Shown: positions 12,128 through 48,716, counted from the stretch's first letter. The stretch: DNA of 64,000 bases from Terriglobales bacterium (GCA_050747745.1 JBOGKM010000110.1:40587-104586); one strand, 5' to 3'. The notes: generated by a model not told the origin, from the letters alone. Made by a program: numbers and translations.

Positions 12128-13600
12128 ATGAATACCGAACTATTGCCCTCCGCCACCGGCCCACTGGCCCAGGTGGAAACAGAAGCGCTGGTCCTGCTGC
12201 TGGACGAAAAGCCGCCCAAGCTCGACCCCGCCATTGATCCGCTCGTCTCCGAGCTGGCCCAGACGCAGGAGTTTACCGGCAAAACCTTGGAGATTGCCGT
12301 GCTCCATCGTCCGGCGGGAATGAAAGCCACGCGTCTGGTGCTGGCCGGCAAGGGGAAAGCGCGCTGGGGAGTACTCGATGCTTGGCGGCTCGCGGGCGCG
12401 GTCGCGCGTCAGCTCAAGGGCAAAGGCGTCCATCAGATGACCGTGCTGCTGCCCGACGACCTGCCGCCCGCTGCCGCGGCCGCCGCCCTCGCCACCGGCG
12501 TCGCGTCGGCGAACTTCGAACCCGACACCTACAAGAGCGATCGCAAGCCCGAGCGCCAGATCACGCATCTGCAACTCATTGCGCCCAACGGCGCCGATCG
12601 CAAGGCGCTGGAGCAGGCGCTGCGCGAAGCCGCCATTTGCGCCCAGGCGCAGCGCTTCGCCCGCGATCTGGCCAACGAGCCGGGCAACCGCCTCACCCCC
12701 ACCATCCTGGGCCAGCGCGCGCAGGCGATGGCGCAAACGGCGGGCCTGGAGTGCGAACTGATCGGCCCTGAACGTGCGCGTGCGCTCAACATGGGCGCCT
12801 TCCTCGCCGTCTCGCAGGGCAGCGACGAGCCGCCCTGCATGATGGTGCTGCGCTATCGCGGCGGCGCCCAGGGCGGGCCCACGCTGGGCATCATCGGCAA
12901 GGGCATCACGTTTGATTCGGGCGGCATTTCCATCAAGCCCGCCGCCAACATGGACCAGATGAAGTTCGACATGTGCGGCGGTGCGGCCACGCTGGCGGCC
13001 ATGCAGGCGATTGCGGCGCTCAAGCTCAAGCTCAACGTCATCGGCGTGGTCGCGGCCAGCGAAAACATGCCCGGCGGGAGGGCGCAAAAGCCCGGAGACG
13101 TGCAAACCTCGATGTCAGGCAAAACCATCGAAGTGCTGAACACCGACGCGGAAGGCCGCATGGTCTTGTCCGATGCCATTCATTACGCCAAGACCTTGGG
13201 CGCGACGCATTTAATTGATTCCGCCACGCTGACCGGCTCGGTGGTGGTGGCGCTGGCCCACGTCAACACCGGCGTGTTCTCGAATGACGACGAGCTCTAC
13301 CGGCTCTTGCAGGCGGCGCTCAGCCGCAGCGGCGAAAAGATGTGGCGCCTGCCGCTCGACCAGGAATACTCGGACATGATCAAGGGCCACTGCGGCGATA
13401 TCCTCAACGCCGGCGGACGCTGGGGCGGCGCCATCACCGCCGCTGCCTTCCTGCAGGCCTTCGTGGGCGACACGCCCTGGGTCCATCTCGACATCGCCGG
13501 CACCGCCTGGCTGGAGGACAACAAACCCTGGATGCCGAAAGGCCCCACCGGCACGCCCACCTACACCCTGATCGAGTTCGCCCGCGAACTGGCCCGCTAG
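12128..13600 (+). CDS. pepA: Leucyl aminopeptidase (M17)
   Basis: M17 signature NTDAEGRMVLSDA, GKGITFDSGGISIKP and MKFDMCGGA. Confidence 0.9.
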   Translation: MNTELLPSATGPLAQVETEALVLLLDEKPPKLDPAIDPLVSELAQTQEFTGKTLEIAVLHRPAGMKATRLVLAGKGKARWGVLDAWRLAGAVARQLKGKGVHQMTVLLPDDLPPAAAAAALATGVASANFEPDTYKSDRKPERQITHLQLIAPNGADRKALEQALREAAICAQAQRFARDLANEPGNRLTPTILGQRAQAMAQTAGLECELIGPERARALNMGAFLAVSQGSDEPPCMMVLRYRGGAQGGPTLGIIGKGITFDSGGISIKPAANMDQMKFDMCGGAATLAAMQAIAALKLKLNVIGVVAASENMPGGRAQKPGDVQTSMSGKTIEVLNTDAEGRMVLSDAIHYAKTLGATHLIDSATLTGSVVVALAHVNTGVFSNDDELYRLLQAALSRSGEKMWRLPLDQEYSDMIKGHCGDILNAGGRWGGAITAAAFLQAFVGDTPWVHLDIAGTAWLEDNKPWMPKGPTGTPTYTLIEFARELAR

Positions 13601-36461: not shown

Positions 36462-37727
36462 CTATAGAAACAGGCGCAGGTCGCGGAGGTTGTTACCGGT
36501 GGGGCCGGTGTGAAGCAGCGCGCCGGCGGCGGCCAGCGCCGTATGGGAATCCTGGCGGCGCAGGTACCCGGCCGGATCGAGGCCGGCGGCGCGGATGCGG
36601 GCGGCAGTCGAGCCGTCCACGCAGGCGCCGGCGGCATCGCTCGAACCGTCCACGCCATCGGTGCCGGCGGAAATAAAACAACCCGGCTGGCCCTCCAGCG
36701 CCAGTGCCAGGCGCAGCGCCAGCGAAAGGTTGCGGCCGCCACGGCCGTGATCCGCGCGCAAGCGCACACGCACTTCACCGCCGGCGACGAGAGCGGCGCG
36801 CGGCTGAGTGGCACGCAGCGCGCGCCAGCGCGCCAGCAGATATTCCGCCGCCGGCTCCTCCTCCCATTCGTCAGCGGTATTATCCACAACGACAGAATCG
36901 TATCCTTCGTTGCGGACGGCGGCGGCCAGGGCCGCGCACGCATCACGGTTGTCGGCCAGACAATGCCACTGTGCCGAGGCGAAGATCGCGTCCCCCGGCT
37001 TGGGCGTTTCCGGATGCTGCTCCGGCTCGCCCGCCAGCCAGCGCCGCCATGCAGCTTCGAAGTCGGCCTGCGTGCTAGCGTCGGGGCAGGTCGGCCCCGA
37101 GGCAACATTGGCCCATTCGCCGGTGGGTACATCGGAAAGAATCCAACTTGTTTGCGACACTCCGGCCGCCGCGGCAGCCAGGTGCCCGCCCTTGAGGGCG
37201 GAACGGTGCTTGCGAATGCAGTTGATGTCGCCGATCACGGCGCCGCTGGAGACCAAACGCCGGTTGAAGGCGCGCAATTCCGCGAGGCCGCCTTGCGGCG
37301 GAACTTCAGCCAGCGCCGAGCCGCCGCCGGAAATCAGCGCGACAAGGGGAATTGCGTCCGCGGCGCAGCGGCGCGCGGCGGACAGCAAGGCTGCGCCCGC
37401 CTGCAAGCTGGCGGCGTTGGGATCAGGATGGCCGCCCTCGAACTCCTGCAGCCGCGGCCCCAGCCGCTCGATCCATCCCGGCGGCAGCGAAGGCGAATCC
37501 ACCGGACGCACCAGCACGGCATGGACGGGCTCGGCCCGGGCGGCTTGCAGATAGCCTGTCAGCATCGGTCCGGCAGCCTTGCCCAGGGCAATGACCAGGG
37601 CCGGAGCCGTACCCGCAGCGCGCTCGCGCATTAGCCAGCAGGGATCGACAGCCGCCAAAGCCAGCTGCCAGCAGCGGCTCCCCCGGGCACAGGGTGAGCC
37701 CTCAGCGCCTGCTTCCCAGGAGGCCAT
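36462..37727 (-). CDS. Glycerate 2-kinase / hydroxypyruvate-reductase-like (DUF4147 + MOFRL)
   Basis: GKAAGPM, GGHPDPN, ALISGGGSALAEVP, IRKHRSALKGG and the MOFRL-type C-terminus FISAGTDGVDG. Confidence 0.8.
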   Translation of the reverse strand: MASWEAGAEGSPCARGSRCWQLALAAVDPCWLMRERAAGTAPALVIALGKAAGPMLTGYLQAARAEPVHAVLVRPVDSPSLPPGWIERLGPRLQEFEGGHPDPNAASLQAGAALLSAARRCAADAIPLVALISGGGSALAEVPPQGGLAELRAFNRRLVSSGAVIGDINCIRKHRSALKGGHLAAAAAGVSQTSWILSDVPTGEWANVASGPTCPDASTQADFEAAWRRWLAGEPEQHPETPKPGDAIFASAQWHCLADNRDACAALAAAVRNEGYDSVVVDNTADEWEEEPAAEYLLARWRALRATQPRAALVAGGEVRVRLRADHGRGGRNLSLALRLALALEGQPGCFISAGTDGVDGSSDAAGACVDGSTAARIRAAGLDPAGYLRRQDSHTALAAAGALLHTGPTGNNLRDLRLFL

Positions 37728-38001
37728 CCACCTCGCTGAGCAACCGCCGCACCAGCTCGCTGATGCGGCCCCAATTGTCTTCTTTTTCCGCGGCTTCGAT
37801 CTGCAGTAAAAGCCGTTTCACCGGCTCAATGGCAGCCGCCTGGGCATCGTCGAAACCGGCTAAAGCGCGGCGGCTGGCGCGCAGCCGCGCCGCGCGCTTC
37901 AACTTGCCGGGCGTGGAGGTGCCTTCGCGCTCGTAGTCGGCGATTTGGGTGCGGACGGTGATCAGCACCGACTTCCAGTCAGGAACAGAGTGCAAGCTCA
38001 C
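37702..38001 (-). CDS. Hypothetical small helical protein
   Basis: 99 aa, GTG start, high third-position GC. No family recognised. It overlaps the glycerate kinase start by 26 nt. Confidence 0.4.
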   Translation of the reverse strand: MSLHSVPDWKSVLITVRTQIADYEREGTSTPGKLKRAARLRASRRALAGFDDAQAAAIEPVKRLLLQIEAAEKEDNWGRISELVRRLLSEVDGLLGSRR

Positions 38002-38049
38002 TCAGACATTATGAGGTATGTTTGACCGCTCGCTTTCGCGCGGTGTGGG

Positions 38050-38740
38050 CTAAGCACAGTTATGTTTAAGGTTAGCCGCCAGCGCCAGCGCGGCCTGCGG
38101 ATCCCCTTCCAGGAGAAAAAAGCTCCACTCGAGCTCTTTGGATTCGGTAAAGCCATTGGCGAGGAAAGCGATCCATGGCTCCGCGAGAACTCGGGCAGCG
38201 CTGACGCAGTTGGCGTTTACGCGGATGAGGTGCCGCCCAGGGCCGGGAACGCAGCGATGGTTGCGCCGATGGTTTCGGCCTGCAACTGGTGCCACCAGCC
38301 CTCGGTGAGCTGCGCGTCCGCCTGGAGGCGAACCTCGGAGAGGTCGGCCCCGCGGGCGAGCGCCTGCTCGGACCTGCGCAGCGCGTTGCGGCTTCGCCGG
38401 GCGGCGCCCAGCACCGACACCCAGCGGATCTTCTCCAGACGCGCTGGCCGACCGGGTCGAGGGCGCTGGGGCTGGCGCTCTGGCCGAACTCGGGAACTAT
38501 GGCGCGGGGGCTCGAGGCGTGCGGCGGGTTGAGGGTGGCGCTCGCGAACTGGCGTAGCCGAAACAGCAGAAGGAAAACGACAAGACGGTCGTATGTCTCG
38601 TCCGCCGGAAGCGTGGACGGCGCGTCGGCGACGGTTCTCGTACCCGCTGGCCCGGCCACGCCGTGCTTCCGCCCTGCCTGCAGCCTCAGGGTCTCGGCGT
38701 GGACGAAAAAGCCGTCGGTCACGAGCCTGCCGGGCGTCAT
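38050..38740 (-). pseudogene. Probable decayed gene of unknown family read across three successive frames
   Basis: High third-position GC moves from the frame of ORF 38072..38740 (about 38740-38445), to the frame of ORF 38217..38810 (about 38445-38217), to the frame of ORF 38050..38295. Both shifts go in the same direction. GC drops locally near 38000-38100. Confidence 0.35.
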
Positions 38741-38917
38741 CGGGTTCCGGATGCACGGCGCAGGGCAGCACCCAGTCCGGGAGCACGCGGCGCGCCCGCC
38801 GGAGGACCACTACGCGCTCCCAAGCGGCCTACAGCTCCCAGTGCGACAGGCGATCCGTTGGCTCCCGCGCGCGGCACGGAAGCGGGTCCCCCGCAGGCGG
38901 ACCCGCGTGGCGCGGCG

Positions 38918-39517
38918 CTACGGCCGCGCCTGTTGCGGCAGGACGCTGGCGGAAATCAAACGCCGCATGCGGCTGGCCAACTCGACAATGCACTGCAGGC
39001 GAGCGGCGAGCGGCGGCGGCAGGCGGCGGGGCACGCTCTGGGCCAGCTCGGCGGCGAGTTCGGCGTTGCCCAGAATTCCCGTAAGTGCGTTGTTGATGGC
39101 GGCCTGCACTGCGGCCGGATCGGAAGGCGGAGCGGGTAGATCGCGCGGGCAGCGGCTGACCGCCTCGAGGTGTTGCTGCAGGATAAAGGCGAGCTTGGAA
39201 ACCGGCAACGAACGATCCAGGAAATCCACGACCGGCCCAGCCAATTCCTCGGCGGGCGGCAGGGATTTGGCGAGCAACGGCAGCACACCCAGCCATAGCA
39301 CGGCAGGCACGGGCGTTTGCTGCGACCGGGGAATGCTGCGGAACGGAGCGGCGGCGGAGTCCAGCAGCAGCAGGCAGCCGGGCGAAAACGCGAGCAATGA
39401 CTCCGGCAGCGCGGGCAACACCGTGAGGTCGGGCGCAGCCGCCGCCGGGGGCAGCGCGCGGCGCAGGCGCGCCTCCAACTCGGCATCGCGGCTGATCAGC
39501 AGCAGCGCGGGTTTCAC
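38918..39517 (-). CDS. Degenerate receiver-like domain + DHp (HisKA-like) helix lacking the phospho-His; no ATPase domain
   Basis: Residues ~135-190 (AAVQAAINNALTGILGNAELAAEL...IVELASRMRRLI) align to the HisKA H-box AHEINNPLTGILGYAELL, but Ala-Ala stands in place of His-Glu. The N-terminal ~120 aa are REC-like with degraded acidic pocket and Lys positions. It overlaps the upstream regulator gene by 4 nt. Confidence 0.6.
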   Translation of the reverse strand: MKPALLLISRDAELEARLRRALPPAAAAPDLTVLPALPESLLAFSPGCLLLLDSAAAPFRSIPRSQQTPVPAVLWLGVLPLLAKSLPPAEELAGPVVDFLDRSLPVSKLAFILQQHLEAVSRCPRDLPAPPSDPAAVQAAINNALTGILGNAELAAELAQSVPRRLPPPLAARLQCIVELASRMRRLISASVLPQQARP

Positions 39518-40929
39518 TGCACACCTCCGCTGGTGCCGGTGGCAGCGCTGCTGCCCTGCGCGGCCGCGTAAGCGTACTCTTTGAGCTTGCGATAGAGGGT
39601 GGTCTTGCCGATGCCGAGCAGCTTGGCAGCCTCGATCTTGTCCCCTTTCACATGCGCCAGAGCTCCCAGGATGGCGTCGTGTTCCAAGTCAGCAATGGGA
39701 CGCACCGCGGCATCGGCCGCGCCGATCAGGCGCAGCGGGCGCAACTGCTGTAAATAACTGGGCAGATCGCCCACCTCCAAGCGGTTGCCACCCGCCAGCG
39801 CCAACGAGCGTTCAATGCAGTTCTCCAGCTCCCGCACGTTGCCGGGCCACTCATAGCTGAGCAACCGCTGCATCGCTTCCTCACTGAAAACCTTGGGAAC
39901 CATGCCGGGCGGTGCGGCACGCTCAAGAAAATGATCCACCAGCAGCGGAATATCCATGGCACGCTCGCGCAGCGCCGGCAGCTTGATGCTAATCACATTC
40001 AGACGGAAGAACAGATCCTTGCGAAAGCTGCCACTGGCTACCGCCGCTTGCAAATCGCGGTTGGTCGCGGCGATGATGCGTACGTCAATCTTGATGTGGC
40101 GGGTGCTCCCCACCGGGCGGATTTCCTTTTCCTGCAGGGCGCGCAAGAGTTTGACCTGCATATCGGAGGGCAACTCGCCGATTTCGTCCAGGAACACAGT
40201 TCCCCCGTGGGCCACCTCCAGCAGCCCCTGATGGTTCTGGCTGGCGCCGGTAAAGGCGCCCTTGACATGGCCGAACAGCTCGCTCTCCACTAGCGACGGC
40301 ACCAGCGCGCCGCAGTCGACCGGCAGAAAAGGCCGGTTGCGCTCCGGGCCGGTATAGTGCAAGGCGCGCGCGACCACTTCCTTGCCAGTGCCGCTTTCCC
40401 CCAAAATGAGGACCGAATAGCGGCTCTGCGCCACCTTGCCAATCAGGCGGAACACGCGCTGCATGGCCGGGGAGGCGCCGATCAGATTGCCGGCCGCGAA
40501 CGGACCGCGCGCCGCCAGCCGCTGCCCCCGCGCTTCGCGATCGAGCAGCGACTGGCGCACACAATTTTGCAGCAACAGCCGCAGCTCTTCCAGCTCAAAG
40601 GGCTTGGCGAGATAGTCGGAGGCACCCAGTTTCATGGCCTCGACCGCCAGACCGACGTTGCCGAAGGCGGTCATGAGCAGCACCGGCACACCCGGCCAGG
40701 ACTGCTTGGCGCGCCGCAGCAGTTCCACCCCGTTCATGTCGGGCAGCTGCACTTCAGCGACCAGCACATCGGGCCGATCCTTCTCGAAGCATTCCAGCGC
40801 GGCCGCGCCGGTGGAGACGCCGGTAGCTCGATAACCCAATTGCGCCGCCACACTCAGGCAAATCTCGCGCACCACCTCCTGGTTATCCGCAACAACGATG
40901 TGCGGAACGACGGCAACCGGCGTTGGCAT
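39514..40929 (-). CDS. Sigma-54-dependent transcriptional activator (REC + AAA+ + Fis-type HTH) with Glu at the phospho-acceptor position
   Basis: GESGTGKEVVARALH (Walker A), the GAFTGA loop, FRKDLFFRLNV and a C-terminal HTH KIEAAKLLGIGKTTLYRKLK. The receiver reads PDVLVAEVQLPDMNG where NtrC has PDVLLSDIRMPGMDG. Confidence 0.88.
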   Translation of the reverse strand: MPTPVAVVPHIVVADNQEVVREICLSVAAQLGYRATGVSTGAAALECFEKDRPDVLVAEVQLPDMNGVELLRRAKQSWPGVPVLLMTAFGNVGLAVEAMKLGASDYLAKPFELEELRLLLQNCVRQSLLDREARGQRLAARGPFAAGNLIGASPAMQRVFRLIGKVAQSRYSVLILGESGTGKEVVARALHYTGPERNRPFLPVDCGALVPSLVESELFGHVKGAFTGASQNHQGLLEVAHGGTVFLDEIGELPSDMQVKLLRALQEKEIRPVGSTRHIKIDVRIIAATNRDLQAAVASGSFRKDLFFRLNVISIKLPALRERAMDIPLLVDHFLERAAPPGMVPKVFSEEAMQRLLSYEWPGNVRELENCIERSLALAGGNRLEVGDLPSYLQQLRPLRLIGAADAAVRPIADLEHDAILGALAHVKGDKIEAAKLLGIGKTTLYRKLKEYAYAAAQGSSAATGTSGGVQ

Positions 40930-40956
40930 GGCAAACTCTCCTCTCGCCCGTATACC

Positions 40957-40972
40957 TGCAGCCAGCGTGCCA
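40957..40972 (-). promoter_or_regulatory. Candidate sigma-54 (-24/-12) promoter for the activator/REC-DHp operon
   Basis: The minus strand reads TGGCAC-GCTGG-CTGCA against consensus TGGCAC-N5-TTGCA. It lies 27 nt upstream of ATG 40929, with GAGAGGAGAG in the leader. Confidence 0.55.
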
Positions 40973-41064
40973 AACTCGGACGAGCATCCGGCAGAGGGCG
41001 TAAAGCATTGTTTGCCTTTGTTTACGGCCCTCGCGGCGGGTTGGGGAGCATGCGCACTCGGTCC

Positions 41065-41086
41065 CTGCCAAGTCCCAAATTGGCAG
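41065..41086. promoter_or_regulatory. Perfect 7-bp inverted repeat, candidate enhancer-binding-protein site
   Basis: CTGCCAA-N8-TTGGCAG lies about 100 nt upstream of the sigma-54 promoter at 40957..40972, a typical UAS distance. Confidence 0.3.
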
Positions 41087-41108
41087 CGGGATTCCTGAAA
41101 TGGGGCGC

Positions 41109-43010
41109 TCAGCGTTCGGGATTGGAACTGCCGGCGACGGCACCGGAGCCAGCCTCACCCGTGGGCGACGGCATGGGCAGCATGGGCGCCAGGCGCGCCT
41201 CGGCTTCCGCAGCCGCCGGCAAGCGCACGGGCTGCCAGTGCTGGCCACCGTCACGGGAACGGAAGGTGGCGCCCACGGCGCGGGCGAAGGCCACGATGAC
41301 GCCGTTGTGTGCCTGCATGGAACGGACATCGAGCGCGGGCAGGCCGTGGCCGCTTAGGCTCCAATGTGCGCCCCGGTCGCGGGACGTGTACAGCCCGGCG
41401 GTGGTGGCGGCAAGCAGGACGGGAGTGCCGTCCGGAGCGGATGCAAGCGCCAACTGGTGAATGCGCGCCCGGTGACCGGGAGCATCGAGGGTCAATCGGC
41501 CGGGCAGAAAGTGTTCTCCGCCGTCGTGGCTGCGCAGCACATAGCCGTCGCCGGCAATCCAGAGCCAGGGAGCATGGGCGCCATCGGCCGCGAGCAGAAG
41601 ATGATACAAGGGCGCGGGGGCTTGCCGCAGTTGTGACCAGCGGCGGCCGCCGTCGCGGCTACGGAACAGACCCAACTGTCCGGCGGCCCAAACCTCAAGC
41701 GAGTCCTCGCGGGTACCCGCAAGAGCATAGAGAGGACTGGTGGGCATGCCAGGAAGCTGCTCCCAGCGCTGGGGATGATCGCCCCGCTGCGGCGGCAGCA
41801 GGTAAATGCCCTGGGCGGTGGCCGCCAACAACCCGGCGGAGGACCAGTGCAGGGCCAGGGCTTGCTGGCGGGCAGGCAGGAGCGGCAGATGCTGCCAACT
41901 GGCGTCGCCTCGTTGCAGGAAGATCCCACCCCAGGCCTGATCGCCGGTGACGGAGATATAGCGCCCGCCGGGTCCGTAGGCGACGGCGGCAACGTGACGG
42001 CTGGAAAAGCCGTGATCGGAACGGTGGAAGCTGCGGCCGGAGTCCGTGCTGACAAATACGCCGGCGAAATTGGTGCCCAACAGCAGGCGACGCGGCAGCG
42101 GAAGAACGGTGTTGATGCTGAGGCGGGGTGAGGTGATGCGCTCCCAGGTGGCACCCTGATCATGCGTGACCCACAGCCCCTGGGTGGTACCCGCGTAGAT
42201 AGTTTTGGGATCCAACGGATCCTGCACAATCGCCGGCGTGCGGCGGGCGGAATAGGGAATGCCCTGGATCTTCTGGAAGTGATCGCCGCGATCCTCGCTG
42301 CGATAAATGCCCGAGCAAGCGCTCAAATAAAGGATTTGTGGATCGAGCCGGTCGACCGCGATGGAAAACACGTCGGAATCGTCAATGACTCCCTGGCGCA
42401 TCTGCCACCAGTCGTGGCCGCCGTTGATGGTTTTCCAGGGCAGATGCCAGGTGCCGACGTAAATCTCCTGGGGATTATGGGGCGCAATGGCGACGGATTC
42501 GACGTTTTCCAGCTCGCGGTCATGGACGGGCGAGATACGGCTCCAGTCGCGGCCGGCATCCTGACTGCGATAAACCCCATCCAGCGCCGCCGCCACTAGA
42601 ATGGAGGAATTGGAGGGCGCCAACGCCAGTGCTCGCACGGCATGGCCCAGCCACAGCGCGTGCCAATGCCGTCCGCTGTCGGCACTGGTGAATACCCCGC
42701 CGTTGCGGGCCGTCCAGCTCCAGAGTGAGGCGTACCAGCGCCCGGGACGGCCGGGGTCGGGAATCAGGCTGGAAATGACCCAATCGTCGTGCCTTCCGAC
42801 GTGGCTGAAGAAACTCCAGCCCCGGCCGGCATCGCTAGAACGGAAGATCGAGCCGGTTGCGGTGCCGAGCAGCACCGTCGCCGGACGGTCGGGATCGGCG
42901 GCCAGCACGCGCACTGTACCTCCGGGCGGCGCGGGCGGAGGCTGCGGCTGGGCCGCGGCCAAGCGGAAAAGCCCCATTGCCAGCAGCCCTACGCCGAAAC
43001 TTCGCCACAT
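41109..43010 (-). CDS. Secreted BNR/Asp-box repeat beta-propeller protein (Ycf48/sortilin-Vps10-like)
   Basis: At least 11 Asp-box motifs SxDxGxxW/F (SSDAGRGWS, SADSGRHWH, SQDAGRDWS, THDQGATWE, SRDGGRRWS, SRDGGQHWQ and others). Signal peptide from ATG 43010 (MWRSFGVGLLAMGLFRLAAAQ). Confidence 0.8.
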   Translation of the reverse strand: MWRSFGVGLLAMGLFRLAAAQPQPPPAPPGGTVRVLAADPDRPATVLLGTATGSIFRSSDAGRGWSFFSHVGRHDDWVISSLIPDPGRPGRWYASLWSWTARNGGVFTSADSGRHWHALWLGHAVRALALAPSNSSILVAAALDGVYRSQDAGRDWSRISPVHDRELENVESVAIAPHNPQEIYVGTWHLPWKTINGGHDWWQMRQGVIDDSDVFSIAVDRLDPQILYLSACSGIYRSEDRGDHFQKIQGIPYSARRTPAIVQDPLDPKTIYAGTTQGLWVTHDQGATWERITSPRLSINTVLPLPRRLLLGTNFAGVFVSTDSGRSFHRSDHGFSSRHVAAVAYGPGGRYISVTGDQAWGGIFLQRGDASWQHLPLLPARQQALALHWSSAGLLAATAQGIYLLPPQRGDHPQRWEQLPGMPTSPLYALAGTREDSLEVWAAGQLGLFRSRDGGRRWSQLRQAPAPLYHLLLAADGAHAPWLWIAGDGYVLRSHDGGEHFLPGRLTLDAPGHRARIHQLALASAPDGTPVLLAATTAGLYTSRDRGAHWSLSGHGLPALDVRSMQAHNGVIVAFARAVGATFRSRDGGQHWQPVRLPAAAEAEARLAPMLPMPSPTGEAGSGAVAGSSNPER

Positions 43011-43052
43011 AGTCCTAACCCATTCTAGGCACTCAGCGCAGCCATGCAACAC

Positions 43053-43083
43053 AGGCGGCGGCCTTAGATGCCGGCCGCCGCCT
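43053..43083 (-). terminator. GC-rich hairpin downstream of the OmpA-family gene
   Basis: AGGCGGCGGCC-N9-GGCCGCCGCCT, a perfect 11-bp stem, starts 29 nt after the stop at 43112. No clear U-tract. Confidence 0.35.
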
Positions 43084-43111
43084 AGGTGCTGAGATCAGCG
43101 TTGCGAGCGCC

Positions 43112-45169
43112 TTAGTGCTTGATCATGCTCTCATCGAACGTTTCCCCAGGGCCGTTGTAAGTTGCGCCCTGAGGCACAATCCAGACTTCATCCTGATGCG
43201 GTCCATCCGCATGCCGGACCTGGATGCGATCGCTGGCAATGCCCTTTTGATTCACCAAATAATCCTTGGCATGCACGGCGCGCTCCTCGGCCAGCCGCAG
43301 CGTGGTGGCCGCCGAAAGCGGATGGCGGCGCGCCACCTCCGTGGACGTTGCGTATCCGACGATCACTGCCTGAGCAGAGGCATCCTGCTGCAAGCGCAAA
43401 GCTATGTCGTCCAGCGCCGCCTTGGCGATGTTGTTCACCCGCGAGCTATTGGGTGCGAATTGGAAGGTGGTGGCCAGGGTGGCCTGCGGCGGCGGGGGCG
43501 GCGTTTCGATGGTTGCCTGCGCCGAACAGCTTGCCGATAAACCACGATCATCGGTTACGATCAGCCTGCCGGTGACTGGGCCGGGCGTGGCGCCGGTGGT
43601 ATCCAGATGCACGGTCGCTTGCGAGGTGGTGTCCAGGTGACCGGCACTGGAGGGATCGACCGTCCAGGCGTAGGTCAGCGGACGATTGTCGGGACTGGAG
43701 GCCTGGCCGGTAAAGGTAAGTGATGCCCCAGGCAGCACCGAGTCCGGACTGACCGAACAGGAAGCGGCGGGAGGATGGCGAACGGGCACGCGTACTTCCA
43801 CCTGGGTCGAGCAGGAAGCCGACTGGCCGGTGCTATTGCTCACCTTGCCGGTGATCGTGTACATGCCGGGCGCCAGGCCGGTAGTATCGAGCGCGGCCGA
43901 ACTGCCCGAGGGAGTAAGCTGACCGCCGGTAGAAGTCCAGGTATAGGTATAAGGGGGGCCGCTGGGGCTGACCGTGGAGGTAATCTGCACGCTGGTGCCA
44001 GGCTGCACCGGGCTTTGGCTCACCTGGCAGGCGAGCGTCGGCGGCGTCGGTGGCGGCGCAGGGTGCGTCGCCGGCGGGCCGAAACTCAGCCCAAAAACAA
44101 ACCCGCTCACATTAGTGGTGGGCGAATGGGCGGCAAAACGATAGCCGGCGTTGATGCCCATCCAGGAGATCGGATTGTAGCGGATGCCGCCAGTCACATC
44201 CACCGGACGCGGCGCACCCAGGTACAACACCGGGTTGTAGCCGGCACCGAAATAAGAGCTTCCGGTCAACTCCACGATGCCCTGTAAACGCGTATGCAAC
44301 GGAAAGATCTCACCAAAGCCCCAGTTGATCTGATCGCGCAGGGGAAGGTACACGCCATCCTTGTTGATCGTGCCGTTGTGCTGGTAACCGATATTGGCGA
44401 CCATTTCCCCGGCGGTGCCGAGCCGCTTGTCCAGCAGCACGTTGTCCTGGAACCAAGGCTCGGTCGTGGTCACGCCATGCACCAGAGCGCCCTGGGCAAA
44501 ATCAGTGTGATAGGGGGCGTGTTCGGCAAACTGCAGTGCCAGGCCGAACTTGTCGCCACGATCCTGCGACAGCAGTCCGATGGTGGCGGCAAGACTCCAA
44601 TCAGGAGCACCATGCAGCAGTGGACTACGCGCAAACGGCGCCATGGGATTGAAACTGCCGAAGGTGCCGTTCACCGGCCAGGTCAATTGTTCCGGATGGG
44701 TCACACGCACACGGCGATACGGGGTGGTGGCAAAAGTAATTTCCAGCCAGCGCGTGATTCCGACCGTCCAGCCGGTGTCTACATCGGTAAACACCAGGCC
44801 GCCGGGAGAGCGGGAAAAACGCTGAACATATGCGCCGGAACTCACCTGACCGGGCGCCAGCGTCTCGGCAAACTGCGTGCTCCAGAGGCCCGGCGTGCCT
44901 TCCAGCGAGCCTTGCATCTGGCTGGGCACAAAACCCGAACTGGCGCTGGCCTGGGCCGCCTGGGCCGCCGCCAGCAGCGGCGCGAACGGGTCCGGCAACG
45001 GAGTCGCCAGGGCCGCGCTCAGCGCCAAACCACCGCCCGGCGCCGTGTACGGACCATTGTCGGGCGGCGCCGCCCGAAGCCCGGCGGACAGTAACGCCAT
45101 CACCATGATGCCCAGGGCCATGCACCGCAGGTCCGGCACACAAAATCCTGCACTGATTCTTTGCTTCAT
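43112..45169 (-). CDS. OmpA-family outer-membrane protein with N-terminal barrel-like region and two PKD/Ig-like domains
   Basis: C-terminal OmpA-like domain (FQFAPNSSRVNNIAKAALDDIALRL...VIVGYATS...RLAEERAVHAKDYL). Two ~85-aa Cys-bracketed Ig-like repeats (..PYTYTWTSTGG.., ..LTYAWTVDPS..). N-terminal signal peptide. Confidence 0.8.
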   Translation of the reverse strand: MKQRISAGFCVPDLRCMALGIMVMALLSAGLRAAPPDNGPYTAPGGGLALSAALATPLPDPFAPLLAAAQAAQASASSGFVPSQMQGSLEGTPGLWSTQFAETLAPGQVSSGAYVQRFSRSPGGLVFTDVDTGWTVGITRWLEITFATTPYRRVRVTHPEQLTWPVNGTFGSFNPMAPFARSPLLHGAPDWSLAATIGLLSQDRGDKFGLALQFAEHAPYHTDFAQGALVHGVTTTEPWFQDNVLLDKRLGTAGEMVANIGYQHNGTINKDGVYLPLRDQINWGFGEIFPLHTRLQGIVELTGSSYFGAGYNPVLYLGAPRPVDVTGGIRYNPISWMGINAGYRFAAHSPTTNVSGFVFGLSFGPPATHPAPPPTPPTLACQVSQSPVQPGTSVQITSTVSPSGPPYTYTWTSTGGQLTPSGSSAALDTTGLAPGMYTITGKVSNSTGQSASCSTQVEVRVPVRHPPAASCSVSPDSVLPGASLTFTGQASSPDNRPLTYAWTVDPSSAGHLDTTSQATVHLDTTGATPGPVTGRLIVTDDRGLSASCSAQATIETPPPPPQATLATTFQFAPNSSRVNNIAKAALDDIALRLQQDASAQAVIVGYATSTEVARRHPLSAATTLRLAEERAVHAKDYLVNQKGIASDRIQVRHADGPHQDEVWIVPQGATYNGPGETFDESMIKH

Positions 45170-45414: not shown

Positions 45415-46785
45415 ATGAAGCGGTCTCGCGTGCTCGTAGTGGACGACGAAGCCAATGAGCGCCACGGCCTGGCGGAGCTGCTGGGCGCGTGGGGCTACGA
45501 AGTGGATGCGGCTGCCGATGGTGTCGAGGCCCTGGAGCGGCTGACACGAACCCTGCCGGAAGCGGTGCTGACCGATATTCGCATGCCGCGCCTGGACGGG
45601 CTGCAGTTGCTGGAGCGCATCCGTCAACGCCACGGCGAACTGCCGGTGCTGGTGCTCACCGGCCAAGGATCCAAAGAGGCCGTAATTGCCTGTCTGCGGC
45701 TGCGGGCCAACGATTACATTGAAAAACCCATTCGCAGCGAAGAATTGAAGCAACGGCTGGCGGATGTAGTGAGTACCGCCGATCCGGTGCAGGCGAAGGT
45801 GCGAGAGCAGGATGGCGCAGATGAATTTGTCGGCATCTCGGCCATGGCGCAACGGGTGCGCAGCCTCATTGAACAAGTGGCGCCCACCACGGCCAACGTG
45901 CTGATCACGGGCGAAAGCGGAACCGGAAAAGAAGTGGTGGCACGGCGCATCCATGCACTCAGTCCGCGGCGGGACCGGACGTTTCTGGCCATCAATTGTT
46001 CGGCGATCCCGGAAAGCCTGATGGAGAGCGAAATTTTCGGGCACGAAAAGGGAGCCTTTACCGGTGCCCAGGACCGGCGCGCCGGCTGCTTCGAGCTGGC
46101 GGAAGGGGGCACGCTGCTGCTGGATGAAATCGGGGAAATGCCGGCCGCCACCCAAGCCAAGCTGTTACGCGTGCTGGAGGAGCGGCGACTGCGGCGACTG
46201 GGCAGCCGGCAGGAAATCCCGGTCAACGTACGCGTGCTGGCGGCGACCAATCGGCCCCCCGCTGAAGCGGTCGCGGCAGGGCAGTTGCGCGCCGATCTTT
46301 ACTACCGGCTAAACGTTTTCCATCTGTACCTGCCGCCCCTGCGCGAGCACCGCGAAGATTTGCCGGCCCTGGCCGCGGCGCTGCTGCGCCCGCTGAACCA
46401 GCGGCACGGACGAGCGGTAGCAAGCATCGCAGCCGACGTTCTGCGCCAGTTCGCCGCCTACGCGTGGCCGGGCAACGTACGCGAGCTGCGCAACACGCTG
46501 GAGCGGGCGGTGATCGTAGCAGAAGGGCCGGTGCTGGAGGCGCGCCATTTGGCGGAGGAGTTTGGCGCCGCGCCGGCGCTGGCGGCCAGCGCCGAGGGCG
46601 AGTGCGTGCGCGTGCCGGTGGGAGCGACGGTGGATGAAGGCGAACGTCTGCTCATCCTCAACACCCTGGCCCGTGAAGGCAACAACAAGACGCGCGCCGC
46701 CGAGCGGCTGGGCATCAGCCTGAAAACCCTGCAAAATAAACTGAAGGAGTATGCCGCCCAGGGCTGGGAGCAGAGGCAGCGCTAG
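45415..46785 (+). CDS. Sigma-54-dependent response regulator (NtrC family, canonical receiver)
   Basis: The receiver has VVDDE, AVLTDIRMP, VLTGQG and YIEKP. AAA+ GESGTGKEVVARRIH and GAFTGA. C-terminal HTH KTRAAERLGISLKTLQNKLK. Confidence 0.88.
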   Translation: MKRSRVLVVDDEANERHGLAELLGAWGYEVDAAADGVEALERLTRTLPEAVLTDIRMPRLDGLQLLERIRQRHGELPVLVLTGQGSKEAVIACLRLRANDYIEKPIRSEELKQRLADVVSTADPVQAKVREQDGADEFVGISAMAQRVRSLIEQVAPTTANVLITGESGTGKEVVARRIHALSPRRDRTFLAINCSAIPESLMESEIFGHEKGAFTGAQDRRAGCFELAEGGTLLLDEIGEMPAATQAKLLRVLEERRLRRLGSRQEIPVNVRVLAATNRPPAEAVAAGQLRADLYYRLNVFHLYLPPLREHREDLPALAAALLRPLNQRHGRAVASIAADVLRQFAAYAWPGNVRELRNTLERAVIVAEGPVLEARHLAEEFGAAPALAASAEGECVRVPVGATVDEGERLLILNTLAREGNNKTRAAERLGISLKTLQNKLKEYAAQGWEQRQR

Positions 46786-46838
46786 CACGGCGGCAGCGCT
46801 GTGGTGCTGCCCGGACCGCCGCAGGGGCGCGTCGGCGC

Positions 46839-48716
46839 GTGAAGCTGAAAACCAAAATCACGCTTAGCATTTCCTTGCTGGTGCTGCTTGTGGTGCTGGC
46901 GGTGACGCTGGTGTATCTGGCGGCGGGCATGCGGCAGCAGTTGCAGGCGGAGTACACCCACGCCGATTTCCTGGCGCGGGAAGTGTACAGCCAGATGGGG
47001 CAGGAATGGAGCACGGCCGACGTCAGCGGTCTGGGTACGCCCGCAGGCGCCGCCGCGCTGCAGAATTTTCTCGGGCAACTGCCCCGCAACGTGGCGCTCA
47101 ACACGCTGTTCAATGCTGCCATCGGCTACAACAGCGCCATCCGTGACATAGCGGTGATCGGTCCCGGCGGCCAAGTGGTGATGGACTCCAACCCGCTGCT
47201 GGCGGGACACCCGCAGCCGCAGCGGCCCGATATGACCGCATTGACGGCGGCGGGGCTGTGGCGGCAAACGCGCGCGGTGCTGGGTCCGGAGGCAATTTAC
47301 GCGGTGAACCTGCCGGTGGAGGCGGGCGGGACGCCGCTGGGCACCATCAGCGTGGGAGTGGACTCGGTGCTGTTGCGCCAGGCGATGCTGGGGCGGATGC
47401 GGCACTTGTTGCTCTATGGCGCCTTGATCGTGCTGCTGGCCACCGGCCTGGCCTGGAGCCTGGCGGAGCTGGCGCTGGCGCCGCTGGCGGCCATCAGCGC
47501 GCAGGTGGACCGCCTCATGGCGGCCGCAGCCTCCAAGTTGCCGCAGGAAGAGGGCGGCGTCGGTGATGAGCTGGGGCGGGTGCAGTCGAAAATCGAACGC
47601 CTGGGACAGCAAATTCAGGACTCGCGCCAGGTCTACACCACGCTGCAGGAAAACGTGGGGCACGTGCTGGCGGGCTTGGAGGAAGGACTGTTGCTGTTTG
47701 ATAGCCGCGGGCGCAGCGTGATGGCCAGTGCCGCCATGCCGCGCTTGTTGGGCTTACCCGCGGAAGCGCTGGTGGGACGCGAAGTGGAGGAGCTGTTTCC
47801 CGGTTCCGGCGGCCTGGACGCAGCGGTGCGCGAGGCGGTGCGGCGCCAGCAGCCGCTGCCGGCGCAGGAAGATCAGCGCCAGCCGGGAGGGCGGCCGCTA
47901 CTTGCACGGCTGGAACGGATCGGCGGCACGGACGGCACGGGAGGCGCCCTGCTGACCTTGCGCGACGCCGAACCGCTCTCGCGCCTGGAGAGCGAACTGG
48001 AGCTGGCACGGCGGCTGTCGGCTGTTGGCCGCCTCACGCGCGGCGTGGCGCACGAGGTCAAAAACCCGCTCAACGCCATGGCCATCCATCTCGATCTGCT
48101 GCGCACCAAATCGGCGGCGGGCGGCGACGGACTGGGGCCCCACATCGAGGTCATCGGGCACGAAATCGAGCGTCTGGACCGGGTGGTGCGGGCCTTTCTG
48201 GATTTCAGCCGCCCGCTGGAGCTGCAACTGGCGGCGGTGGATCTGAGCGAGGTGGCGCGCGGGGTGGAGCAATTGGTACAGGCCGAGGCCGCCGCCAAAG
48301 GCATCGAGCTGGAGGTGCTGGCGCCGCGGCCGGGACCGCGCGTCTGGCTGGATCGCGACCTGATCGAGCAGGCACTTTTGAATCTGGTGAATAATGGGAT
48401 GCAGGCGATGGAAGCGGCCACCGCGGCCGCGCCGCGCCGTCTGAGCCTGGAGGTGGAAGAGCGGGAACAGCAAGCGCTGGTGCGGGTGCGGGATTACGGG
48501 CCGGGCATTGCCACCGAGCATCAGGACAAGATCTTTGACCTCTACTTCACCACCCGCAGCGAAGGCAGCGGCATCGGTCTGGCGCTGGCGGCGCGGATCA
48601 TGCAATTGCACCATGGCGCGATCGAGCTGGAAGCGCCGGGCGCGGCGCCGGGGGCGAGCTTTCTGCTGCGCTTTCCGCTGCGCCGGGAAGGCGAGGCGGT
48701 GCATGCCGCCGGTTAA
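46839..48716 (+). CDS. Sensor histidine kinase (TM-sensor-TM, HAMP, PAS-like, HisKA, HATPase_c)
   Basis: H-box GVAHEVKNPLNAM, N-box LLNLVNNGMQA, G-boxes DYGPGI and GSGIGLALA. GTG start 54 nt after the regulator gene. Confidence 0.85.
   Translation: MKLKTKITLSISLLVLLVVLAVTLVYLAAGMRQQLQAEYTHADFLAREVYSQMGQEWSTADVSGLGTPAGAAALQNFLGQLPRNVALNTLFNAAIGYNSAIRDIAVIGPGGQVVMDSNPLLAGHPQPQRPDMTALTAAGLWRQTRAVLGPEAIYAVNLPVEAGGTPLGTISVGVDSVLLRQAMLGRMRHLLLYGALIVLLATGLAWSLAELALAPLAAISAQVDRLMAAAASKLPQEEGGVGDELGRVQSKIERLGQQIQDSRQVYTTLQENVGHVLAGLEEGLLLFDSRGRSVMASAAMPRLLGLPAEALVGREVEELFPGSGGLDAAVREAVRRQQPLPAQEDQRQPGGRPLLARLERIGGTDGTGGALLTLRDAEPLSRLESELELARRLSAVGRLTRGVAHEVKNPLNAMAIHLDLLRTKSAAGGDGLGPHIEVIGHEIERLDRVVRAFLDFSRPLELQLAAVDLSEVARGVEQLVQAEAAAKGIELEVLAPRPGPRVWLDRDLIEQALLNLVNNGMQAMEAATAAAPRRLSLEVEEREQQALVRVRDYGPGIATEHQDKIFDLYFTTRSEGSGIGLALAARIMQLHHGAIELEAPGAAPGASFLLRFPLRREGEAVHAAG

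Follow-up and report, generated by a model that had tools for sequence, protein, structure and literature searches.

Introduction

FlbD of Caulobacter crescentus is a sigma-54 activator with a degenerate receiver domain that is controlled by the direct binding of FliX. Its receiver lacks key residues, it has no cognate kinase and is active without phosphorylation, and the small trans-acting protein binds it with high affinity (PMC3096577). Here, we describe a two-gene module in a 64,000-nucleotide stretch of DNA (hereafter the window; GCA_050747745.1, JBOGKM010000110.1:40587-104586) from the metagenome-assembled genome of a soil acidobacterium of the Terriglobales (96.8% complete, 3.27 Mb). 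The module encodes an NtrC-family sigma-54 activator whose receiver carries Glu in place of the phospho-acceptor Asp and a small partner protein, composed of a pseudo-receiver and a dimerization and histidine phosphotransfer (DHp) hairpin, from which the phospho-acceptor His is missing. We favor the explanation that this pair is the remnant of a three-gene phosphorelay operon, the kinase gene of which was not found in the family, and that phosphotransfer is extinct at the locus, where the old docking interaction would now regulate the activator. We put the probability of this explanation as a whole at roughly 55%.

Among described systems, FlbD-FliX is the closest precedent. FliX is not reported as two-component-derived and reports on flagellar assembly, whereas the partner in the window is derived from a DHp/HisKA domain, carries a pseudo-receiver, is encoded in the same operon as its activator and has relatives that have kept the intermediates; homology to FliX is not claimed. 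Binding rather than phosphotransfer is also the principle of NifL-NifA, in which a histidine-kinase-related protein controls a sigma-54 activator stoichiometrically. NifL contains PAS and GHKL domains, and NifA carries a GAF domain in place of a receiver; the two pairs are alike in binding-type control as proposed here, and a direct relationship is not expected. In NtrC, the engineered substitution D54E is an activating Asp-to-Glu exchange.

Two further comparisons concern the DHp hairpin. Spo0B of Bacillus and ChpT of Caulobacter, both dimeric phosphotransferases, place a kinase-inactive DHp hairpin between a receiver and a terminal regulator, and both carry a C-terminal degenerate ATPase-like domain (PMC3433190). 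His-bearing relatives of the window's partner occupy a position of this type in their operons, with an N-terminal pseudo-receiver instead of the C-terminal domain. The window's partner itself cannot be a phosphotransferase, because its His is missing. In the pseudo-histidine kinase DivL, a DHp surface that no longer phosphorylates is kept for receiver binding (PMC4211667). DivL, however, retains a full PAS-DHp-ATPase arrangement with Tyr at the His site and signals to CckA, whereas the window's partner is a soluble protein coupled to its activator. A literature search for DHp-only proteins also brought up split CheA (Hik36/Hik43), which is not comparable.

The acceptor Asp is absent from about 2% of receivers and the His from 0.9% of HisKA domains. 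The substitutions seen most commonly in pseudo-receivers are Asn for the second acidic residue and Glu for the acceptor, and the Glu is often a partial mimic of phosphorylation (PMC12632262). Of 20 atypical regulators reviewed, 18 are orphans (PMC12632262). Unlike these mostly orphan aspartate-less or pseudo-receiver regulators, the window's activator keeps a co-evolving, degenerate partner in the same operon. New here are the pseudo-receiver plus DHp architecture of the partner, for which NCBIfam holds no model, the retention of a catalytically dead partner beside a catalytically dead receiver, and the preserved series of intermediates.

Phosphotransfer residues are substituted on both partners

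The activator matches the Pfam families Response_reg (86.2 bits, residues 11-119), Sigma54_activat (233.7 bits), AAA_lid_14 (87 bits) and HTH_8 (46.7 bits), and its NCBIfam matches are NtrC/AtoC/ZraR-like, all under the equivalog cut-offs. Walker A, Walker B and the GAFTGA motif, which is invariant among all orthologues, are present in the AAA+ domain, the sensor II motif (WPGNVRELEN) is intact, a Fis-type helix-turn-helix (HTH) forms the C-terminus, and rpoN is encoded in the genome (Sigma54_DBD, 196.9 bits, contig C115). An earlier interpretation made without database searches (hereafter the sequence-only reading) had described the AAA+ and HTH domains as intact, and the Pfam matches and motifs agree with it.

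The five catalytic positions of a receiver are usually occupied by D-D, D, T and K. Across the 120 best activator homologues, which we aligned, Asp stands at the second acidic position in 96 and at the acceptor position in 116. In the window's activator (HIVVADNQE ... PDVLVAEVQLPDMNG ... LLMTAF ... YLAKPF) these two positions are Asn16 and Glu59, as had been read from the VVADN motif and its incomplete acidic pocket. The domain belongs to the receiver fold and sequence family, and with two of the five catalytic residues substituted it departs from the canonical set; it thus falls among the aspartate-less pseudo-receivers as PMC12632262 defines them. The acceptor Glu is shared with the orthologues at loci L012, L013 and L020 and has arisen separately in L038. 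Four species with separate assemblies carry it, which excludes a sequencing error.

The partner gene starts at a GTG that overlaps the TGA stop codon of the activator gene by 4 nt (GTGA, as first noticed in the sequence-only reading) and is preceded by GGAGG. Its sole Pfam match is HisKA, below threshold (19.3 bits against a cut-off of 26.9). The same profile is matched by 9 of 14 members of the partner family (best E 2.3e-9), and His-bearing relatives clear the cut-off at 42-44 bits. The homology to HisKA is convincing, though the partner itself lies under the Pfam threshold.

An AlphaFold2 model of the partner, based on 14 homologues (mean pLDDT 78), shows five beta-strands alternating with helices in residues 1-122, followed by a hairpin of two helices (134-161 and 168-191). 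In a Foldseek search of the PDB, the model matched receivers, including several pseudo-receivers (ChxR, FrzS and ShkA Rec1), as well as KaiA, a pseudo-receiver with a helical dimer. A family-profile search of solved structures gave weak matches only (E 0.03-0.3), in register with receivers and a DHp. On the strength of the model, the Foldseek and profile matches to receivers and the HisKA matches among family members, the partner is best read as a pseudo-receiver fused to a DHp hairpin. In its profile alignment to solved receivers, D11 falls on the second acidic position and D53 on that of the acceptor, with Gly standing for the Thr and Arg for the Lys.

In the H-box, the window's partner reads QAAINNALTGILGNAEL where His-bearing relatives read RHELNNPLAGILGNAEL, so that A139-A140 stand for His-Glu; His occupies this position in no member of the genus. 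Pfam detected no HATPase_c domain in the 199-aa protein. The sequence-only reading had pictured a degenerate receiver-like domain joined to a DHp with Ala-Ala and no ATPase domain, and a loss of His-to-Asp phosphotransfer residues on both sides, and this picture holds: the receiver is D-N/E/T/K and the H-box Ala-Ala. Its further label, "partner-switch-like", finds no specific support, and no STAS antagonist, serine kinase/anti-sigma factor or PP2C phosphatase was detected by Pfam in the activator, the partner or the adjacent genes.

The partner alignment has 22 invariant columns, among them D11, D53 and N143 (His+4), with N142 nearly invariant. Genus-wide, the best-conserved stretches are NNALTGILGNAEL, which follows directly on the vacated His position, and the start of helix 2. 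Where HisKA domains form complexes with receivers, it is through these two regions that they contact the receiver. We also considered whether the partner is a recent copy of the DHp of a neighboring NtrB-type kinase and rejected this idea, because the H-box of that kinase (HEVKNPLNAMAIHLDLL) belongs to a different class.

Two cysteines were observed in the helices concerned. Cys24 of the activator (40858-40860; REIC, receiver helix 1) is kept throughout the family and in the activators of Acidoferrales, and Cys176 of the partner (RLQCI, hairpin helix 2) is present in the window's closest relatives, others having Arg. A redox link between them is conceivable, because both helices would sit at an interface of the kinase-receiver type.

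The losses differ in age

When 401 genomes of the order were searched with a profile, the full-length partner, with its reading frame intact, turned up in all 27 genomes of the window's GTDB family; outside the family, the hairpin part alone was matched, in ordinary kinases. The activator gene lies immediately upstream of the partner gene at every family locus, even where all other neighbor genes differ (L006), and an identical 4-nt overlap is present in all five genus loci with called genes. The pair forms a conserved, translationally coupled module in the family.

We read the key columns in all family pairs and mapped them on a tree of the activators. Two genera of the family keep RHEL(N/Y)NPL in the partner. 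The window's genus is a clade of 16 (support 99) in which all members are without the partner His and most activators retain the canonical D-D/D/T/K receiver beside it. Nested in this genus is a clade of 7 (support 98) in which the second acidic residue has been replaced by S, A, N, T or C, and nested in turn is a clade of 5 (support 98), four members of which carry the acceptor Glu (the window, L012, L013 and L020), L014 having Asp. L038, in which Glu was gained independently, is a distant member of the family. The losses are therefore ordered on the activator tree: first the partner His, then the second acidic residue, then the change from Asp to Glu.

Glu and the missing His are accordingly lineage traits of different age and not errors or the oddity of one strain. 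The two are not conserved together: the loss of His is genus-wide and older, and Glu is confined to a small subclade. Orthologues carrying Asp and His had been named as a sign of a strain-specific mutation or a sequencing error; this check gives a mixed answer, as many orthologues do keep the Asp, and both changes nonetheless recur as traits of lineages.

Among members of the Glu clade, the partner has a dN/dS of 0.26-0.42 and the activator one of 0.07-0.12; saturation of dS (above 1) makes these values rough. At the amino-acid level, close relatives are 49-55% identical in the partner and 82-85% identical in the activator. On these rough values, the partner is still under purifying selection within the Glu clade.

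His-bearing relatives follow a hybrid kinase in Acidoferrales

An exhaustive profile search of 1.84 billion representative proteins yielded 496 relatives of the partner, 121 of them at E <= 1e-10. We inspected the 122 proteins of 180-280 aa among the best 150. Most share the pseudo-receiver plus DHp architecture and read LRHExNNPLTGILGNAELLL, an ATPase domain (HATPase_c) is present in none of the 122, and the His is invariant in a 43-sequence alignment (A3) drawn from them. Because of this invariance, phosphotransfer is the likely ancestral role of the wider family.

All 80 genomic loci of the wider family (L090-L169) come from Candidatus Acidiferrum / Acidoferrales genomes, which belong to the same class as the window. 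Upstream sequence is available for 76 of these loci, and in 74 of them the gene immediately preceding the small gene encodes a hybrid histidine kinase; one example has 1003 aa with PAS, HisKA, HATPase_c and receiver domains. An NtrC-type activator with a canonical receiver stands just before the kinase in five of five long assemblies, where it sits just beyond the 3.5-kb flank of the small gene, and also in L149, L168 and L163. The Acidoferrales operon thus runs in the order activator, hybrid kinase of ~1000 aa and His-bearing small protein of ~200-250 aa (e.g., L151:452-4208 and L149:60-4064), and a -24/-12 sigma-54 element is found upstream of these activator operons as well. By its position and residues, the Acidoferrales small protein would be a second-histidine phosphotransfer carrier from the kinase receiver to the activator. 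A DHp phosphotransferase is recognized by a His on the hairpin and a place between a kinase receiver and a terminal regulator; the Acidoferrales relatives have both in their residues and operons, and the window's partner has neither His nor a detectable kinase. As the third member of the operon, and without a curated family, the small protein may represent an undescribed type of phosphotransfer protein.

Outside its own family, the window's activator has its nearest relative in the kinase-adjacent activator of the Acidoferrales, at 52-54% identity. In a second activator tree, from which one row in the wrong reading frame (L174) was disregarded, the family activators form one well-supported clade and the kinase-adjacent activators another. 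The hybrid kinase has no detectable counterpart on the window's side: its 480-aa sensor region matched in 0 of 28 genomes of the window's family, and the same probe matched 67 of 80 Acidoferrales loci as a positive control (median 35% identity). The window's genome encodes several hybrid kinases, and a search of it for this one returned generic kinase-core similarity only, at 41% or less.

These comparisons bear on the origin of the small protein. The sequence-only reading had taken the pair for a kinase/regulator couple, with the small protein a kinase that had lost its ATPase domain; this does not hold, because the whole family (>100 representative clusters) is without such a domain and the small gene follows a hybrid kinase in the sister order. 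The same two observations, a partner family without an ATPase domain and His-bearing relatives that follow a hybrid kinase, are the reason to see the window's pair as what is left of a three-gene relay.

Promoter and candidate enhancer sites

The near-consensus sigma-54 promoter of the sequence-only reading was found again and is conserved: the pattern TGGCACN5YTGCW has a single match in the window against 0.21 expected by chance, and in most orthologues a GG-N10-GC (-24/-12) element precedes the start codon by 25-45 nt. The palindrome proposed further upstream, CTGCCAA-N8-TTGGCAG at 41065-41086, stood as a sequence but not as an enhancer. Its left part alone overlaps an element conserved among orthologues, and its outer right arm, TTGGCAG, is conserved in no orthologue; the conserved elements are 15-bp sites resembling TTCCCAAATTGGGAA, arranged in tandem.

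These sites were found with an iteratively refined palindromic weight matrix (consensus TTCCCAAATTGGGAA). Each of the 23 orthologous upstream regions has two tandem sites, those of the window's closest relatives three, with a spacing of 20-21 bp. Their distance upstream from the start codon is mostly 145-200 nt and reaches ~290 nt in a few regions. In a matrix scan of the 3.27-Mb genome, a strong tandem pair occurs at this locus only, with one weak pair on C109, and a consensus search with mismatches for a wider regulon found no site pairs in the window's genome. The activator probably binds the tandem sites and autoregulates its operon; that the sole strong pair lies here fits autoregulation of a small, self-contained operon. 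Combining the matrix with the -24/-12 pattern gave one more candidate in the genome, on C55 at ~13028-13130 (L061:4850-5250), where the site TTGCCAAATTGGGCT lies ~100 bp upstream of a loose TGGCCG-N5-CTGCA match. As a single site that is not obviously intergenic, it was not counted as a regulon member and is probably a chance occurrence.

Table 1 Features of the module and its surroundings (positions counted from the first nucleotide of the window)
Feature	Position	Strand	Basis
DUF4147/MOFRL glycerate-kinase-like gene, downstream of the pair	36462-37727	-	Pfam
ORF of ~100 aa, downstream of the pair	37702-38001	-	
Partner, 199 aa: pseudo-receiver and DHp (HisKA-type) hairpin, without ATPase domain and without His	38918..39517	-	Pfam, AlphaFold2, Foldseek
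DHp-like hairpin of the partner, residues 134-191; vacated H-box A139-A140 at 39098-39103, then near-invariant NNALTGILGNAEL	38945..39118	-	Alignment and model
Pseudo-receiver of the partner, residues 1-122; invariant D11 and D53, Gly77 at the T position, Arg at the K position	39152..39517	-	Model and profile alignment
NtrC-family sigma-54 activator (bacterial enhancer-binding protein), 471 aa: pseudo-receiver, AAA+ and Fis-type HTH	39514..40929	-	Pfam
HTH_8 (Fis-type) DNA-binding domain	39574..39696	-	Pfam
Sigma-54 interaction AAA+ domain, residues 149-315; Walker A GESGTGKE, GAFTGA, Walker B FLDEIGE	39985..40485	-	Pfam and sequence
Receiver domain of the activator, residues 11-119; D15-N16 / E59 / T87 / K109	40573..40899	-	Columns against 120 homologues
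Glu59 codon GAA, phospho-acceptor position	40753..40755	-	Alignment
Asn16 codon AAC, in place of the second metal-binding Asp (DD2)	40882..40884	-	Alignment
Predicted sigma-54 promoter TGGCAC-N5-CTGCA (GG-N10-GC), 28 nt upstream of the activator ATG	40957..40972	-	Pattern match
Proximal candidate enhancer site CTGCCAATTTGGGAC, overlapping the left arm of the palindrome	41072..41086	-	Matrix score 17.6; same position in 23 regions
Middle candidate enhancer site (weak) GCCCCATTTCAGGAA, 20 bp away from the proximal one	41092..41106	-	Matrix; equivalents in L004 and L008
Distal candidate enhancer site GTTCCAATCCCGAAC, within the last codons of the upstream BNR gene	41114..41128	-	Matrix; equivalents in L004 and L008

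Genomic neighborhood

At all 15 genus loci (15 of 15), the small gene is trailed on its own strand by the ~100-aa ORF, the DUF4147/MOFRL gene or both, often at a gap of only 8-90 nt, and these genes probably belong to the same operon as the pair. The ORF is without a family assignment; it has a conserved core, VRTQ(I/L)ADYEREGTSTPGKLKR, comes after the small gene at most loci of the genus (e.g., L009:6609-6923), and its sole match, to a phage tail chaperone profile, is weak and probably due to chance. In the window, a spacer of 917 nt (38002-38917) separates the small gene from this ORF, compared with mostly ~10-90 nt in relatives, ~420 nt in L014 and ~820 nt in L018. Three overlapping reading frames within it have no Pfam match, and the spacer may be a decayed insertion interrupting the operon.

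Directly upstream of the module lie a BNR/Sortilin-type propeller gene and an OmpA-PKD outer-membrane gene (41109-45169, minus strand), which are likewise upstream in L002, L004 and L011 and absent in L008 and L009. Beyond them, 4.5 kb upstream of the module and divergent from it, a canonical NtrC-type activator (VVDDE/TDIRMP/LTGQG/EKP) is followed by a 625-aa membrane kinase with PAS, HisKA and HATPase domains (45415-48716, plus strand; the NtrB-type kinase at 46839-48716). In L009 and L011, too, this canonical pair is a neighbor of the atypical module, so that within the genus the two sigma-54 systems stay associated.

Discussion

The comparisons above suggest a course by which a phosphorelay could have turned into a switch that works by binding only. 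In the ancestor, a sigma-54 promoter would have driven an activator, a hybrid kinase (PAS-HisKA-HATPase-REC) and a His-bearing pseudo-receiver-DHp protein. The kinase gene would then have gone missing in the family, where the small gene adjoins the activator gene; next, in the genus, the His would have disappeared from the small protein, followed in a subclade by the second metal-binding Asp of the activator receiver and, in the window's immediate relatives, by the exchange of the acceptor Asp for Glu. The activator in the window would thereby be freed from control by phosphorylation, and Glu59 together with the retained Thr87 and Lys109 would probably bias its receiver to an active-like state.

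Translational coupling would supply the partner in step with the activator, and the conserved DHp surface of the partner could dock on the activator receiver, with binding setting either assembly or ATPase activity; inhibition would be the likelier direction of the effect. A remaining signal input, if there is any, would most likely enter via the partner's own pseudo-receiver. The autoregulated operon would run on into the ~100-aa ORF and the MOFRL-family gene.

Several observations weigh against this account. In many species of the genus the His-less partner stands beside a fully canonical receiver, and in those species the activator may be phosphorylated by another donor and the partner may act catalytically. 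Such a catalytic role is possible because the Asn at His+4, a phosphatase-motif position, is invariant; if the partner is catalytic in relatives, the state of the window could reflect a late loss of activity and not a binding function. For some pseudo-receivers, the idea that Glu mimics phosphorylation has been refuted (PMC12632262). The Asp of L014 inside the Glu clade is either a reversal or the result of unresolved branching, and the partner evolves ~4x faster than the activator, with dS saturated. Strict orthology of the family activators and the kinase-adjacent activators is likely and not proven, because the tree leaves the relation of both clades to a paralogue clade unresolved.

Three other explanations deserve weighing against the retained docking interaction. 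An unlikely one, though the best placed of the three, is that the main target of the partner lies elsewhere, for instance in mixed DHp dimers or in hybrid-kinase receivers that it sequesters, or that its own receiver-like domain is phosphorylated as an input. D11 and D53 of that domain are invariant, the genome offers several hybrid kinases, and pseudo-receivers, which also figure among the fold matches of the partner, bind ligands or partner domains in ShkA (Rec1) and CikA (PMC12632262). Strict co-location and translational coupling with the activator throughout the family, even in L006, speak against a main target elsewhere, and ordinary phosphorylation of the partner is improbable because its receiver-like domain has lost the T, K and first acidic positions.

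We consider it somewhat less probable still that the partner serves the activator receiver as a phosphatase or phosphate sink, kinase-less and dedicated to it. Phosphate would come from acetyl phosphate or from an unlinked kinase such as the NtrB-type enzyme next to the canonical activator, the His-less DHp would remove it, and in the Glu subclade the job would recently have turned pointless. N143 is invariant and N142 nearly so, at the Thr/Asn position of the HisKA phosphatase motif; phosphatase activity of HisKA proteins does not require the His, according to a passage of PMC12632262 that cites Willett and Kirby 2012; most species of the genus combine a canonical D-D/D/T/K receiver with the His-less partner; and the window, L009 and L011 show synteny for the canonical activator-kinase pair. 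In the window, however, a phosphatase would find no substrate (Glu59, Asn16), yet the partner is intact, coupled and under purifying selection in all four Glu species. The acidic residue at His+1 has been lost too (Ala140), and the invariant His of the wider family indicates phosphotransfer, not phosphate removal, as the ancestral activity.

That the partner gene is a functionless leftover decaying towards a pseudogene, with the activator constitutive or controlled by its expression, is about as improbable as a phosphatase: the partner does evolve much faster than the activator and has lost every catalytic residue, but its frame is intact in 27 of 27 family genomes, its start codon, ribosome-binding site and 4-nt overlap are preserved, its dN/dS is well under 1, and its 22 invariant columns and the blocks NNALTGILGNAEL and SKLAFILQQHL have been preserved genus-wide long after the loss of the His.

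Pseudo-receivers make up several percent of receiver domains, a 2025 review calls their activation and inactivation in bacteria a mystery, and nearly all of those studied are orphans (PMC12632262). The locus presents a pseudo-receiver activator that is still with its former upstream partner, itself catalytically dead, and living relatives hold each earlier stage: the full relay, the kinase-less relay, the His-less partner and the receiver without its metal site. The locus makes two questions testable, namely whether an old docking surface can serve as a regulatory mechanism, and whether the change from Asp to Glu is an adaptive lock of the active state or neutral decay. As the organisms are uncultured and the mechanism is deduced, the present value of the finding is that of a well-defined hypothesis.

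More tentatively, and with somewhat less than even confidence, the pseudo-receiver plus DHp proteins of the Terriglobia could constitute an undescribed third architecture for histidine phosphotransfer, beside monomeric Hpt and Spo0B/ChpT. The window's family would then record, one species after another, the passage from a relay to a binding-only switch on a sigma-54 activator, through the loss first of the kinase, then of the His and then of the metal site, and last through the change from Asp to Glu; its members would offer natural stages at which to study how pseudo-receivers are turned on and off. The locus also draws attention to small phosphorelay proteins, widespread in soil Acidobacteria, that form an uncharacterized family.

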